Source: Squalus acanthias (taxonomy: Eukaryota). From it: a DNA stretch of 64,000 nt. The number at the start of each line of letters is the position of its first letter. The stretch's first letter is position 1. The DNA lies in contig JASTWF010000200.1 in assembly GCA_030390025.1 (NCBI GenBank), positions 496,001 through 560,000 of the forward strand. Reading direction: 5' to 3'. Of the stretch, positions 8,887 through 57,720 are shown one piece after another. Below the pieces are notes generated by a model. The model was not told where the DNA came from. It saw nothing but the letters and a program-made list of their open reading frames with translations, and ran no database searches. The translations under genes and the position numbers were made by a program.

Positions 8887-9785
8887 TCATTTAATGAATT
8901 TAACAATTACATTAAAGGGATATTTCACCACATTCTTCAACTCCTCTCTGTATTTAGTCTGGGTCACGGTATAAATACACGTGTTGGTGCAGCAACTCAG
9001 GAGCTGAAGCATAAATCCCAGTTCCTGTACATATTGAGGTAGATATACAGGAATAAAGTTTAACACATACAATCGGTAACCCACATAATACAACAGAAAC
9101 ACGGCCCATAACAGGATAAAATTCGCGGATATAACAAACAGTAAAATGATGGATTTCCTTCGCTTCTCCATCTCTGGGTCACTGGAACTCTCCCCACTGC
9201 TGTGGGCCCGGAGTCTCCGGCGGACTCGGCTCGACACTAAAACGTGTCTGACGGTTAAAGCATTGAGCAGCAGAATCAAAACAAATGGAATAAATGGGGT
9301 TAAAATATAATGAAGGAACTCAATTACTGCCCACACGAGTGAATAGTTGACATCCACTGATACGTAACAAAACCAGGGAATATTGGAACGGTGATATTTA
9401 CCTTCATACATAAAGTACCAGAAAGTGTTCTTTACACAGAACAGCACAGTCACTGTTCCTAGAACCACAGCCGCCGTTTTCTCGGTGCAATATTTCATTT
9501 TCAGTTTCTTGCAACAAATGACCACAAATCGATCGAAGGTGAAAGTGACTGTGAACCAGACAGAACAGTCTGTGACTGCATAAAGCAGGATGGCGTGGAT
9601 ATTACACACTTCAATCTTCCACTGGAACTGAAACTGATCCCGATAACGAATAGGAATCTGCCTGGATATGAGATCAGTGATAACGACCAGTAGATCCGCC
9701 GCTGCCATGGACACCAGGTAACGGGTGACACATTTGGAGAGACCGCACCTTCTCCGAGACAGGATCACAATCGTCACCAAGTTCA
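8887..9785 (-). CDS. GPR139/GPR142-like class A GPCR, exon 2 (TM1 end to TM7 and C-terminus)
   Basis: Open frame to TGA at 8887. Motifs NLVTIVIL, YLVSMAAADLL, VCN (TM3 Cys), FTFDRFVVIC, PWFC, PFVLILLLNA, FILLW, CCTNTCIY. Acceptor TTGCTTACAG ends at 9786 (phase 1). Confidence 0.9.
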
Positions 9786-10484
9786 CTGTAAGCAATCAAA
9801 AAACAGGGAACTTATTCTTCAGACTGAGAGCAACAGCAGCAATGATTGAATTCTGGGTGAAATGTGCAGCATTGTTATTGAATCCAGGGACAGAATCTAA
9901 TTACTTTACCAGTGACAGTACTTTCTGCTGGAGAGAGGGTTTATAGTGAAACACCGCCCTGGTGTAGCAGGAAACCAGATCCAAATCCCCGCCTGCACGG
10001 GGCTGGCAGTTGGAGTCTACAATGGCCTCAATGACCTTGTGTTAGGAGCGACAATGACCCACGGTTTCTAATCCTCATCAATCTCCTGTGACCCTGCTGG
10101 AAACTGCACATGTAAACATTTTGGATAACCATATTTAGGCTGGGTTGTGTATTCATCCGAAGGGAAATGGCTCAATATTTTAAACTTTCACCTCGGTGGA
10201 ATATCAGTGGCCGGTTTATGAAAGAAACAACAAAAGACTTACTTCCCAAAGCCTTTTGTATCTCATGAATGGCTTTCAAAGAGTGGCACTTACAGAAGGA
10301 AACCCTTCCACTGTATCCCAGTAACAGGCAACATCTCTATTAGAGGCTAGGAAAATTCAATAATGAATTTTAATAAACCATGAAAAAAGACAGTGAATTC
10401 GAGCGGGATACTGGGAGATAGCCAGGAGCAGTGGAGTGTGCGCAGCGCCCCCAGTGGCAGTCTGGAAAGCACTGGGGCAATAAA

Positions 10485-11105
10485 CTCGTGGATGGGACGA
10501 GTGGGTGTTGGGTCAGGGACTGAATGAACCCGTGGATGGGACGTGTGGGTGTTGGGTCAGGACTGAATGAACCCGTGGATGGGACGTGTGGGTGTTGGGT
10601 CAGGACTGAATGAACCAGTGGATGGGACGTGTAGGTGGTGGGTCAGGACTGAATGATCCAGTGGATGGGACGTGTGGGTTTTGTGTCAGGACTGAATGAC
10701 CCAGTGGATGGGACGTGTGGGTGTTGGGTCAGGACTGAATGAACCAGTGGATGGGACGTGTGAGTGTAGGGTCAGGACTGAATGACCCAGTGGATGGGAC
10801 GTGTAGGTGGTGGGTCAGGACTGAATGATCCAGTGGATGGCCATGTGGATGTTCGATCAGGACTGAATTACCCACTGGATGGGACGTGTGGGTGTTGGGT
10901 CAGGACTGAATGAACCAGTGGATGGGACGTGTGGGTGTCGGGTCAGGACTGAATGAACCAGTGGATGGGACGTGTGGGTGTTTAGGTCAGGACTAAATGA
11001 CCCAGTGAATGGGACGTGTGGGTGTTTAGGTCAGGACTGAATGAACCAGTGAATGGACCGTGTGGGTGTTGGGTCAGGACTGAATGAATCAGAGGATGGG
11101 ATTTG
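10485..11105. repeat. 43-bp minisatellite (GTGGATGGGACGTGTGGGTGTTGGGTCAGGACTGAATGAACCA), about 14 copies, in the GPCR intron
   Basis: Tandem unit visible directly. Confidence 0.95.
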
Positions 11106-11289
11106 TGGCGCTGAATCAGACTCGGATGTGACGCCCGCTCAGTGAGTCAGAGGACACTGGTGGAACCATAAACCACGACAGCAATAAAATATTCAACTGT
11201 GGAGAAGTGGCAATATTTTAAATAAACTGATACTGCAAAGAATTTATAACACATATTGATTCCTGCAGTAATTACACAGCAATTTACGT

Positions 11290-54600: not shown

Positions 54601-56712
54601 TGCAGTGAGAGACAGTTCAGGAAGGATGTGAAACAGTGTCTGTTGGTTGTGTTCCAGGGTGGTAGGGTGCAGTGAGAGACAGTCAGGAAGGGACTGTTGA
54701 AACAGTGTCTCTTGGTGTGTTCTAGGGTGCGGGGTGCAGTGAGGGACAGTTCAGGATGGACTGTGAAACAATGTCTGTTGGTGTGTTCCAGGGTGGCGGG
54801 TGCAGTGAGAGGCAGTTCCGGATGGACTATGAAACAGTGTCTGTTGGTGTGTTCCAGGGTGGCGGGGTGCAGTGAGGGACAGCTCAGGATGGACTGTGAA
54901 ACAGTGTCTGTTGGTGTGTTTCAGGGTGGCGCGGTGCAGTGAGAGACAGTTCAGGATGGACTGTGAAACAGTGTCTGTTGGTGTGTTCCAGGGTGGCGGG
55001 GTGCACTGAGAGACAGTTCAGGATGGACCGTGAAACCGTGTCTGTTGGTGTGTTCCAGGGTGGCGGGGTGCAGTGAGAGACAGTTCAGGATGGACTGTGA
55101 AACAGTGTCTCTTGGTGTGTTCCAGGGTGGCGGGGTGCAGTGAGGGCCAGTTCAGGATGGACTGTGAAACAGTGTCTGTTGGTGTGTTCCAGGGTGGCGG
55201 GGTGCAGTGAGAGACAGTTCAGGATGGACTGTGAAACAGTGTCTGTTGGTGTGTTCTAGGGTGGCGGGGTGCAGTGAGAGACAGTTCAGGATGGACTGTG
55301 AAACAGTGTCTGTTGGTGTGTTTCAGGGTGGCGGGGTGCAGTGAGAGACAGTTCAGGATGGACTGTGAAACAGTGTCTGTTGGTGTGTTCCATGGTGGTA
55401 GGGTGCAGTGAGGGGCAGTTCAGGATGGACTGTGAAACAGTGTCTGTTGGTGTGTTCCGGGGTGGCGGGGTAGTGAGGGACAGTTCAGGATGGACTGTGA
55501 AACAGTGTTTGTTGATGTGTTCCAGGGTGGCGGGGTGCAGTGAGAGACAGTTCAGGATGGACCGTGAAACAGTGTCTGTTGGTGTGTTCCACGGTGGTAG
55601 GGTGCAGTGAGGGACAGTTCAGGATGGACTGTGAAACAGTGTCTGTTGGTGTGTTGCAGGGTGGTGGGGTGCAGTGAGAGACAGTTCAGGATGGACTGTG
55701 AAATGTGTCTGTTGGTGTGTTATAGGTTGGCGGGGTGCAGTGAGAGACAGTTCAGGATGGACTGTGAAACAGTGTCTGTTGGTGTGTTCCAGGCTGGTAG
55801 GGTGCAGTGAGGGACAGTTCAGGATGGACTGTGAAACAGTGTCTGTTGGTGTGTTCCAGGGTGGCGGGGTGCAGTGAGAGACAGTTCAGGATGGACTGTG
55901 AAACAATGTCTGTTGGTGTGTTCCAGGGTGGCGTGGTGCAGTGAGAGACAGTTCAGGATGGATTGTGAAACAGTGTCTGTTGGTGTGTTCCAGGGTGGCG
56001 GGGTGCAGTGAGGGCCAGTTCAGGATGGACTGTGAAACAGTGTCTGTTGGTGTGTTTCAGGGTGGCGGGGTGCAGTGAGGGACAGTTCAGGATGGACTGT
56101 GAAACAATATCTGTTGGTGTGTTCCAGGGTGGCGGGGTGCAGTGAGAGACAGTTCAGGAAGGATTGTGAAACAGTGTCTGTTGGTGTGTTCCAGGGTGGT
56201 AGGGTGCAGTGAGGTACAGTTCAGGATGGACTGTGAAACATTGTCTGTTGGTGTGTTCTAGGGTGTCGGGGTGCAGTGAGGGACAGTTCAGGATGGACTG
56301 TGAAACAATGTCTGTTGGTGTGTTCCAGGGTGGCGGGGTGCAGTGAGAGACAGTTCAGGATGGACTGTGAAACAGTGTCTGTTGGTGTGTTCCAGGGTGG
56401 TAGGGTGCAGTGAGGGACAGTTCAGGATGGACTGTGAAACACTGTCTGTTGGTGTGTTCTAGGTTGGCGGGGTGCAGTGAGGGACAGTTCAGGATGGACT
56501 GTGAAACAATGTCTGTTGGTGTGTTCGAGGATGGCCGGGTGCAGTGAGAGACAGTTCAGGATGGACTTTGAAACAGTGTCTGCTGGTGTTGTTCCAGGGT
56601 GGCGGGGTGCAGTGATTGACAGTTCAGGATGGACTGTGAAACACTGTCTCTTGGTGTGTTCTAGGGTGGCGGGGTGCAGTGAGGGACAGTTCAGGATGGA
56701 CTGTGAAACCGT
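51671..56712. repeat. 67-bp satellite (CAGGATGGACTGTGAAACAGTGTCTGTTGGTGTGTTCCAGGGTGGCGGGGTGCAGTGAGAGACAGTT), about 75 copies
   Basis: Period 67 (51671, 51738, ...); highly homogeneous except an indel-rich patch at about 54280-54720. Confidence 0.97.
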
Positions 56713-56745
56713 GCGCTAATGCAGAAACTCAGTCGACTGTTTTGA

Positions 56746-57720
56746 TTATTTAACTATTTTAATGATCAGGTTCACCGGAGATTTGATCATTTTCATGAAA
56801 CCCTCTCTGAATTTAGACTGGGTCACTCCATAAATACAGGTGTTGGTGCAGCAGCTCAGGAGCTGAAGCATGTTCCCGCTTTCCTGGAGAATGAACTTTG
56901 GATCATTGAAACCCGAGATCTTATAAACGTTCGTAATTCGCACATAGAGGAAATTTACAACATAGGTCATCCATAACAAGATGAAACTGCCGGAGATGTT
57001 GAAGAGTAAAACGATGGACTTTTTCCGACTCTCCATCTCTGGGTCACTCTGATTCTCGCCATTGCTGTGGGCCCCGAGTCTCCTGCGGGCTCCACTGGCC
57101 GCTAGAATGTGTCTGACGATCAGAGCATTGAACAGTAACATCAGGAGGAACGGGGCACAGGGGTTAAAAATACGGTCAATCCAGTCAAACGCTGTCCATG
57201 CAAGTTCAGAAATAAAACTTAGCTTAATGTTGCAGTACCACGGGACATCGTTAATTATATACAAAGGCTCATATACAAAGTACCAGGGGATATTTTTTTA
57301 CACAGCTCACGGCACAGTCCGCTCCTATTACAATGGCAGCCGTTCTCTCGATGCTATATTTTGTTTTCAGCTTCTGGCAACAAATAGCCACAAATCGATC
57401 GAAGGTGAAAGCGACCGTCAGCCAGACAGAGCTGTCCCTGGCTGCATAGATTAGAGCGATATTTAGGCTACAGATTGGAGTGATAGAGAGGAAAAGAACT
57501 GGAAAATAAATAACACTGATCCGGTTTAATATCACAGCGGTGATAATGACCAGGAGAGCCGTCACCGCCATGGACACCAGGTACCGAGTGATACATCTGG
57601 AGAGACCGCACCTTCCACGGGACAGGATCACAATCGTCACCATGGACACCAGGTACCGAGTGATACATCTGAAGAGACCGCACCTTCCTCGGGACAGGAT
57701 CACAATCGTCACCAGGTTAG
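56746..57720 (-). pseudogene. GPR139-like GPCR paralogue, exon 2; probable pseudogene
   Basis: Acceptor CCACAG at 57721; same motifs as the first GPCR (FTFDRFVAIC, PWYC, CCTNTCIY). Carries a 72-bp duplication, an A7 frameshift at 57293-57299, and TALLV in place of ADLLV. Exon 1 not found in the window. Confidence 0.85.

Follow-up and report, generated by a model that had tools for sequence, protein, structure and literature searches.

The window analysed here, 64,000 nt of the unplaced Squalus acanthias contig JASTWF010000200.1 (assembly GCA_030390025.1; 815,711 bases; hereafter C1131), contains one intact two-exon GPR139-like receptor gene (G1), a broken one (G2) and three V segments (V1 to V3). 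Two class A 7TM exons (Pfam 7tm_1; 8887-9785 and 56746-57720) bracket, as the original prediction had claimed, one intact V segment and two decayed ones, each of these features being on the minus strand. The prediction was too generous in two respects: G1 is the sole intact GPCR gene in the window, and of the decayed V segments, both of which had been credited with a 23-RSS, V2 has one and V3 does not. In order of position, the features are the following.

8887..9785, minus strand: G1 exon 2, from the second half of TM1 to the C-terminus; frame open, phase-1 acceptor, 7tm_1 E=1.8e-16
19076..19181, minus strand: G1 exon 1, coding for the N-terminus and the first half of TM1, with a phase-1 GT donor followed by a 9.3-kb intron
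35793..47788, minus strand: array-colinear block, matching the main TCR V array at C29:8,489.5-8,505.9 kb with 76-89% identity in unique pieces
36512..36550, minus strand: V2 23-RSS; the heptamer is perfect and the nonamer has 2 changes, whereas the nonamers of the array paralogues are perfect
36551..36821, minus strand: V2 pseudogene; frame open, first Cys and Trp lost
39907-40067 and 40949-41251, minus strand: V3 pseudogene in two pieces; frameshifted, HMM E=4.5e-6
47766..47804, minus strand: V1 23-RSS; heptamer perfect, nonamer 7/9
47805..48090, minus strand: V1 exon, an intact V of TCR alpha/delta type that retains both Cys and the Trp and has a short CDR2; the chimeric X1 contig described below is joined at its acceptor, 48090
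48184..48238, minus strand: predicted V1 leader exon; phase-1 GT donor
56746..57720, minus strand: G2 exon 2, pseudogene, with a 72-bp in-frame duplication (57568-57714) and one extra A in a run at about 57293-57299
61630..62622, minus strand: LTR retroelement, RNase H region, occupying the site of the first intron and exon of G2 in the copy on contig C53

A search for exon 1 of G2 upstream found none. GPR139 is a single-copy gene, and the receptor that it encodes is activated by L-Trp and L-Phe. The shark receptors resemble the orphan class A receptors GPR139 and GPR142 (PDB 7vug, 9m42) in that they have a class A 7TM domain, in that GPR139 is the best PDB match of G1, and in that the database clusters of the family are automatically labelled 'probable G-protein coupled receptor 139'. 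However, the similarity to GPR139 is not strong, being barely better than that to the ghrelin receptor (E=8.5e-8 against 1.9e-7), and the family, far from being single-copy, comprises at least 743 copies, counted as exact TM7-motif matches (control 0), on many chromosomes; the first 100 matches listed include arrays on C3, C6, C7, C17 and C21.

V1 (47805-48238) scores as a V-set domain (E=8e-10) and has TCR alpha chains among its best single-domain PDB matches; its frame ends just past the heptamer. The change at the 5th base of its nonamer, scored against the RSS nonamer consensus, recurs in another V of the main array and in the array remnant of the V1 family, which indicates that the change is old. 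At up to 2 mismatches, the 23-RSS pattern has 2 matches in the window against 0.07 expected, a number reached in 1 of 100 shuffles. A functional TRA/TRD V gene has an intact exon with the conserved Cys and Trp, together with an RSS, and V2 and V3 fall short of this; V3 has been split by an insertion, and a deletion has removed its 3' end along with the RSS.

Judged from sequence comparison, the V segments of the window are descendants of the TRA/TRD-type V array on C29, the antigen-receptor chromosome, on which GPCR fields of megabase size flank a 4.3-Mb V/IgH array that has N stretches at its left side. This assignment rests on the colinear flank, the paralogues of V2 inside the array (88-89% identity; dN 0.13 and dS 0.10 for V2 and its array paralogue) and a V1 remnant at C29:8,505.9 kb, the array counterpart of V1 having been wrecked by an internal deletion. 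No array match of V1 exceeds 36% identity among 123 matches, and V1 is the only intact form of its V family that we found. The window itself is not part of a V array, as had been proposed: in the 459,711 bases of C1131 that were scanned (56%), there are three V remains among 9 GPCR loci, whereas 200 kb of C29 contain 32 V loci. J and C exons, suggested at the outset as a check on the flanking contig, are absent from this scanned part, in which there are 3 RSS-like sites, none with a J motif; TCR constant exons were located only on the unplaced contig C911, which also carries J. V1 is outside the dense array, although it may share a chromosome with it. The shared orientation of receptors and V segments holds within the window but is coincidental, given that 6 of the 9 GPCR loci on C1131 are on the minus strand and that a receptor inside the array is oriented opposite to the neighbouring V2 copy.

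The block that carries V2 to V1 with its GPCR neighbours is present in at least 5 copies; V segments and flanking receptors were duplicated together onto at least four contigs besides that of the window. Copies of V1 (92-99% identity) were found on C1131, C1384, C53, C636, C581 and, twice, C713, and copies of G1 lie 39-48 kb from V1 on four contigs. The flanks of the block copies are 94-99% identical and dS among the copies is at most 0.05, so the copying is recent. By these sequence criteria, the predicted co-duplication of V and GPCR is real for this single cassette. The receptors are deeply diverged (dS 0.55-0.78), in a manner that does not parallel the V segments. The surroundings of G1 match C29:14.80 Mb at 93-98%, with no V present there. 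We note that C1131 is unplaced and that C3:206-208.7 Mb likewise holds the same GPCR subfamilies and two V1 fragments, which we counted against the model preferred below.

Traffic in the opposite direction is evident as well. One intact GPCR gene lies mid-array on C29, at 8.478-8.481 Mb, and the V-bearing contig C449 carries two copies nearly identical to it; to this extent the analogy drawn in the original prediction with mammalian olfactory receptor (OR) genes among TRAV genes was well founded. The comparison of this gene to the G2 copies gives dN/dS of about 0.3, indicative of purifying selection; its intactness under such selection is a further observation that we counted against the passenger interpretation. 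The possibility that the in-array gene lacks a first exon of its own and is driven by a V leader was ruled out, its exon 1 lying 1.9 kb upstream, and so was a derivation of the G2 of the window from this gene (dS 0.55 to the G2 copies).

Taken together, these results are probably best explained by a model in which a tandem field of GPR139-like genes received a copied block of TCR V segments that was later duplicated along with the flanking receptors, most likely as a passenger. Under this model, 12-16 kb of the TCR alpha/delta V array would have been copied into the receptor field and then duplicated several times together with the adjacent receptor genes. The sequences show that V2 has decayed neutrally and that V3 and G2 have been destroyed, and also a reverse event, with one intact GPCR in the array. 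The exchange may have occurred by unequal crossing-over or segmental duplication on C29, and C1131 is likely to be part of one C29 GPCR field. The receptors would retain their own promoters, with no repertoire controlled by the TCR locus. In contrast to the decayed V2 and V3, V1 has kept its leader, phase-1 GT-AG intron, open V exon, both Cys and the Trp in each of 5 full-length copies, which hints at selection, with copies that are too young for a test.

The intactness of V1 could also be accounted for if V1 were a working distal V gene, akin to TRAV1, that lies outside the array and still recombines with TRA/TRD J segments megabases away, with the GPCRs as mere neighbours. This is a possible, albeit rather doubtful, explanation. 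It is consistent with the intact leader, V exon and heptamer of V1, with the deletion of the array counterpart, which leaves the outlying copies as the only ones that could supply this V family, with the nonamer base shared with the array, and with the position of human and sheep TRAV1 amid OR genes, as described in the available part of PMC4574546. However, it sits uneasily with the lack of J and C on 460 kb of C1131, with the heptamer being altered in 2 of the 5 full copies, and with the nearest placed homologue of the flank lying 4.5 Mb from the array end. Moreover, no relative of V1 above 38% identity was found among the best 150 of 403 matches in a representative library, in contrast to the other V families of the array, which have relatives of 57-81% identity in other cartilaginous fish. 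The V tree gave V1 no firm placement (support 0.24).

A different account of why V1 stays intact invokes the receptor genes themselves. Among three contig sets (X1, a probable RNA run, and two others), one 561-nt X1 contig covers V1 from 47964 to 48091 and exits at the V1 acceptor into the end of a GPCR exon 1, using the exact splice sites, including the GT donor of that exon, in frame and at a depth of 7.6; the splice precision and depth were likewise counted against a purely passenger role. The other two sets, X2 and X3, yielded no contig aligning to V1, an outcome that weighs neither way. Accordingly, GPR139-like first exons could serve V1 as an alternative promoter and leader, yielding a small secreted or membrane-tethered single-V protein without rearrangement. 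The joined exon ends in a hydrophobic stretch, and the junction has only 3 shared bases, presumably too few for the usual template switch. Nevertheless, the contig is the only one of its kind in three runs and the RNA status of X1 is a guess; V1 owns an intact leader; and a fusion appears in 0 of 178 stored proteins. There is no matching same-strand GPCR exon 1 within 117 kb (C53), 48 kb (C636) or 45 kb (C581) of V1, nor upstream on C1131, and among 100 listed of 148 donor-pattern matches, none is on C53, C636, C713, C1131 or C1384, the only one on the same strand being 539 kb off on C581, where the V1 allele does not fit the contig. No longer protein containing V1 was found among 89 candidates, which is weak evidence. 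We therefore regard this explanation as distinctly improbable. An origin from a processed, intron-less GPCR-V1 gene was ruled out, in that the 5 full-length copies and one inspected C3 fragment keep the genomic acceptor.

Because the first introns of the GPCR genes and the leader introns of V genes are both phase 1, in-frame GPCR-V transcripts can arise when a GPCR first exon is read through or mis-spliced, and under the preferred model such transcripts are likely to be low-level noise. A bolder proposal, which we consider unlikely, is that GPCR first exons act as swap-in promoters and leaders for the outlying V family that survives only as V1, a case of ongoing exon shuffling between a giant orphan receptor family and the antigen-receptor complex. 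Tissue that expresses the GPCRs would then make a single-V protein without rearrangement, or else germline transcription driven by the GPCR would keep V accessible to RAG megabases away from the array. Literature listings outside subscription journals and most supplements contained nothing on such a chimeric splice or on a shark GPR139-like expansion; the available parts of PMC11979771 and PMC5931798 contain, respectively, no mention of GPR139 and no locus map.

The central claim of the original prediction, that V+GPCR cassettes could be under TCR locus control, so that lymphocyte clones would differ in their receptors according to rearrangement, fared poorly, and such a repertoire is unlikely. 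The co-duplication of the cassette is real, and the intact GPCR lies mid-array amid V segments of both orientations, such that some joins would, by the expected mechanism, delete it. However, the family is scattered across the genome and depleted where this claim needs it: there is 1 GPCR locus in 794 kb of V array and J-C samples, compared to 25 in 664 kb outside, in samples picked around matches rather than at random; 1 of the 57 listed family positions on C29 falls inside the array; and the J-C contig has no GPCR locus in 344 kb sampled. Scatter of this kind, without enrichment or lymphoid expression at the locus, had itself been named as a finding that would speak against the claim. Given that V(D)J deletion would remove 1-3 near-identical in-array copies out of at least 743, no meaningful clonal complement of receptors would result; with the deep receptor divergence and the G2 of the window dead, this explanation seems very unlikely. 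Still less credible is an assembly artefact in adjacency or copy number, which long satellites and one N stretch between the genes of the window, and the 98-99% likeness of C1131 and C1384 (possibly two haplotypes), might suggest, as the V2-V3-V1-G2 order recurs N-free in C1384 and C53, the copies differ by up to 6% plus insertions, and the arrangement would persist even if redundant haplotypes halved the number of copies.

Under the preferred model of a copied, co-duplicated V block, the antigen-receptor chromosome of this shark would largely be an uncharacterised GPCR field engaged in a two-way exchange of DNA with the TCR V array, a parallel to the OR genes at mammalian TRA that involves an unrelated family. 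The annotation of shark TCR loci is affected, because outlying V blocks inflate V counts. If reproduced, the in-frame splice of a GPCR exon to V would offer a concrete route by which V domains could gain new promoters and leaders.

The closest known arrangements are the OR genes among mammalian TRAV1 genes (human OR10G2 and OR4E2, mouse Olfr1507-1509) and orphon V segments such as opossum TRMV-OR2, as described in the available parts of PMC4574546 and PMC2275272 for the former and of PMC2275272 for the latter. As in mammals, an expanded class A GPCR family shares ground with TCR alpha/delta V segments, and a lone V lies among receptors; unlike in mammals, the family is a different, two-exon one, a displaced V block sits within the GPCR field and was amplified with it, the in-array GPCR is mid-array rather than at the distal tip, and V1 is a candidate V gene. 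Much as for orphons, a V exon with its RSS appears to have been copied out of the dense array, the scanned part of C1131 being free of J and C, whereas here the block moved three linked V segments and is represented by 5-7 copies, with V1 keeping its leader as the only intact family member found. A likeness also exists to the elasmobranch antigen receptor complex (AgRC), in which, according to the available part of PMC12227049, IgH clusters have stray V exons of TCR alpha/delta type between them; in our data, the V array on C29 contains 30 C1-set exons of IgH type. PMC12227049 also describes RNA-seq of 20 nurse shark tissues, among them thymus, spleen, white cells and olfactory epithelium; the main text of that report is free of 'GPR' and 'G protein', and the text, as distinct from the figures, of 2 supplements is free of four receptor terms. 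What is new here is a GPCR first exon joined in frame, at exact splice sites, to an intact V, in one contig from a probable RNA run.

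Contrary to the original prediction, the window does not represent a V array. Across 459,711 of the 815,711 bases of its unplaced contig (C1131), we found 9 GPCR loci, three V remains and 3 RSS-like sites, and neither a J motif nor a constant exon was detected in the bases scanned; the dense array lies elsewhere. The five gene-like pieces of the window are, as predicted, all on the minus strand. Its GPR139-like receptor genes (G1, G2) and T-cell-receptor alpha/delta-type V segments (V1 to V3) are:

G1: exon 1 19076-19181, exon 2 8887-9785; minus strand; intact two-exon class A GPCR with a phase-1 intron
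V2: 36551-36821; minus strand; 23-RSS kept, first Cys and Trp gone
V3: minus strand; split pseudogene, RSS gone
V1: leader 48184-48238, exon 47805-48090; minus strand; intact, with 23-RSS
G2: 56746-57720; minus strand; 72-bp in-frame duplication and +1 frameshift, without first exon

Two 7TM genes were thought to bracket one intact V segment; G1 and V1 are indeed intact, but G2 is damaged. Similarly, at least two decayed V segments with a 23-RSS had been proposed, a description that fits V2 but not V3. The window contains 2 matches to the 23-RSS against 0.07 expected. V2 and V3 are presumably dead. An imperfect inverted repeat (77%; window 36283-36470) lies immediately 3' of the V2 RSS, and the array copy has it too.

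The dense V array occupies about 5.98-10.32 Mb of contig C29 and is also found on C911, C449 and smaller contigs. With the constant portions of two shark proteins that carry the name TCR alpha-like as queries, we located TCR constant exons on C911 only, where V segments are followed by a 12/23 D, nine J segments, a first C (583-586 kb), more J and another C (782-784 kb). This layout would match the usual delta-then-alpha order, with the chains assigned presumptively. Immediately 5' of the D, the J segments and the first C, about 23 closely related, co-oriented V segments recur with a ~4-kb period (C911:401-520 kb). On C29, two near-perfect 23-RSSs 62 bases apart (8,443,157 and 8,443,219) follow a single V segment. 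At least 30 C1-set exons, among 150 listed, fall within the C29 array (5.97-10.27 Mb); the ones we inspected belong to the Ig heavy type, and we take them to be IgNAR-like. Because such exons are spread throughout the TCR V segments, the array resembles a series of repeated units, each combining an IgH minicluster with TCR V segments. The presence of Ig heavy-type C1-set exons among TCR V fits the published elasmobranch antigen receptor complex, whose IgH clusters have V exons of TCR alpha/delta type between them (PMC12227049). C1-set exons also occur inside the GPCR fields, i.e. tandem arrays of GPR139-like genes (C29:16.7-17.7 Mb, C988 and C1516), so that Ig clusters may be embedded there.

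The window's V block (35.8-47.8 kb) is colinear with C29:8,489.5-8,505.9 kb at 76-89% identity. In that part of the array, the V2 and V3 counterparts have intact-looking exons and RSSs, and that of V1 is only a remnant with an internal deletion. Relative to its array paralogue, V2 has evolved free of constraint (dN 0.133, dS 0.099). There are 7 copies of V1, with 92-99% protein identity and 5 of them full-length, all on unplaced GPCR-rich contigs; C3 carries two further fragments. The three broken V1 relatives (C29:8,505.9 kb; C3:208.05 and 208.45 Mb) all break off near V-exon codon 34-35. The V2 DNA matches scored numbered 11, 5 within the cassette (the V block with its flanking GPCRs) and 6 at array-type places. 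Four contigs carry G1 copies at a distance of 39-48 kb from V1, and the order V2-V3-V1-G2 is repeated without N in C1384 and C53. The predicted co-duplication of V segments and GPCRs is thus real, but, because synonymous distances among the copies do not exceed 0.05, it is of recent date and limited to a single cassette. C581 is mosaic, with V2 like that of the window and V1 like those of C53 and C636. A 1.2-kb LINE piece (window 44331-45508), near-identical to one at 756-1571, is missing from the C1384 and C53 copies and is therefore a very recent insertion. The surroundings of G1 match C29:14.80 Mb at 93-98%, with no V segment in 80 kb there, and the sequence suggests that C1131 may be part of the C29 GPCR field; the same GPCR subfamilies also occur at C3:206-208.7 Mb.

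Among solved structures, GPR139 is the top relative of G1 (E=8.5e-8), with the ghrelin receptor close behind, and Atlas clusters carry the automatic label 'probable GPR139'; the G1-type receptors are not the GPR139 orthologue. A first-exon profile search found no G2 first exon in C1131 or C1384 and placed that of the C53 copy 2.9 kb upstream, at a site occupied in the window by an LTR element. The window G2 is probably dead, and its +1 frameshift, not present in the C1384 copy, may be an assembly error. In several G2-type receptors, the 72-bp unit, which encodes the TM1 end, loop 1 and the TM2 start, forms in-frame tandem copies (window 57568-57714; C1384:535.2-535.7 kb; C636:484.3 kb; C581:772.3 kb), 2 in the window G2 and at least 7 in C1384; this repeat is a minisatellite derived from a coding exon.

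An exact 26-base TM7 pattern gave 743 genome matches and 0 control matches and, because it recovers only 8 of the 15 copies located in inspected stretches, the family has at least 743 members. Its arrays occur on many large contigs and, on C29, on both sides of the V array. Only 1 of 57 listed family positions on C29 falls inside the V array, which makes up 21% of the contig; the computed P of 3e-5 makes the case look stronger than it is because these positions are clustered top matches that may count both exons of one gene. Direct scans of samples picked around matches gave 25 GPCR loci in 664 kb of field versus 1 in 794 kb of array, array edge and J-C region. The in-array gene is:

C29:8.478-8.481 Mb; opposite strand to the V2 paralogue; intact two-exon GPCR, ~10 kb from that paralogue

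C449 carries two copies of it (99-100% identical), and its dN/dS relative to the G2 copies is about 0.3.

The V array and the neighbouring GPCR fields have swapped DNA both ways, and the exchanged pieces were then amplified locally and decayed. Our preferred model, which we hold to be fairly probable, is that this came about by unequal crossing-over on the antigen-receptor chromosome. Under this model, the GPCRs would retain their own promoters, V2, V3 and the window G2 would be dead, and V1 would be an orphon-like survivor. Intact and equipped with its RSS, V1 might instead be a working distal V segment of the TRAV1 kind, which we regard as unlikely.

Three contig sets, probably of RNA origin, were compared with V1. 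In one (X1), a 561-base contig with a depth of 7.6 covers V1 47964-48091 with 2 differences and breaks off exactly at the V acceptor. The loose end has 196 genomic matches at no more than one mismatch. At each of the 12 loci inspected, a GPCR first exon ends with this sequence, directly before a GT donor, and since both introns are phase 1, the reading frame continues across the join. The V alleles are closest to the C53 copy, with one change more. Around the V1 copies examined, no GPCR first exon of this type was found in the required orientation. It may stem from an unassembled copy, from another haplotype or a related species, or the junction may reflect long-range splicing or a rare mis-splice. 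The chimera is a single contig from one of the three probable-RNA runs, and GPCR first exons acting as functional leaders for V1 seem improbable to us. A clonal GPCR complement dependent on rearrangement, the original prediction, could work mechanically for the 1-3 copies inside the array, but these are trivial against at least 743 in the genome, and we consider it very improbable. An artefact of adjacency or copy number, with N-free copies at hand, is the least credible reading.

In searches of paper listings and of openly accessible text, including term searches in PMC11979771 and PMC12227049, we found no description of this GPR139-like family at the locus or of the GPCR-V splice. Taken together, the arrangement is real and a new form of a known one, most likely a passenger effect for the most part, with the GPCR-V splice as the one testable surprise. 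In the way it works it resembles the olfactory receptors that lie among the TRAV1 genes of mammals (PMC4574546), and also orphon V segments (PMC2275272).
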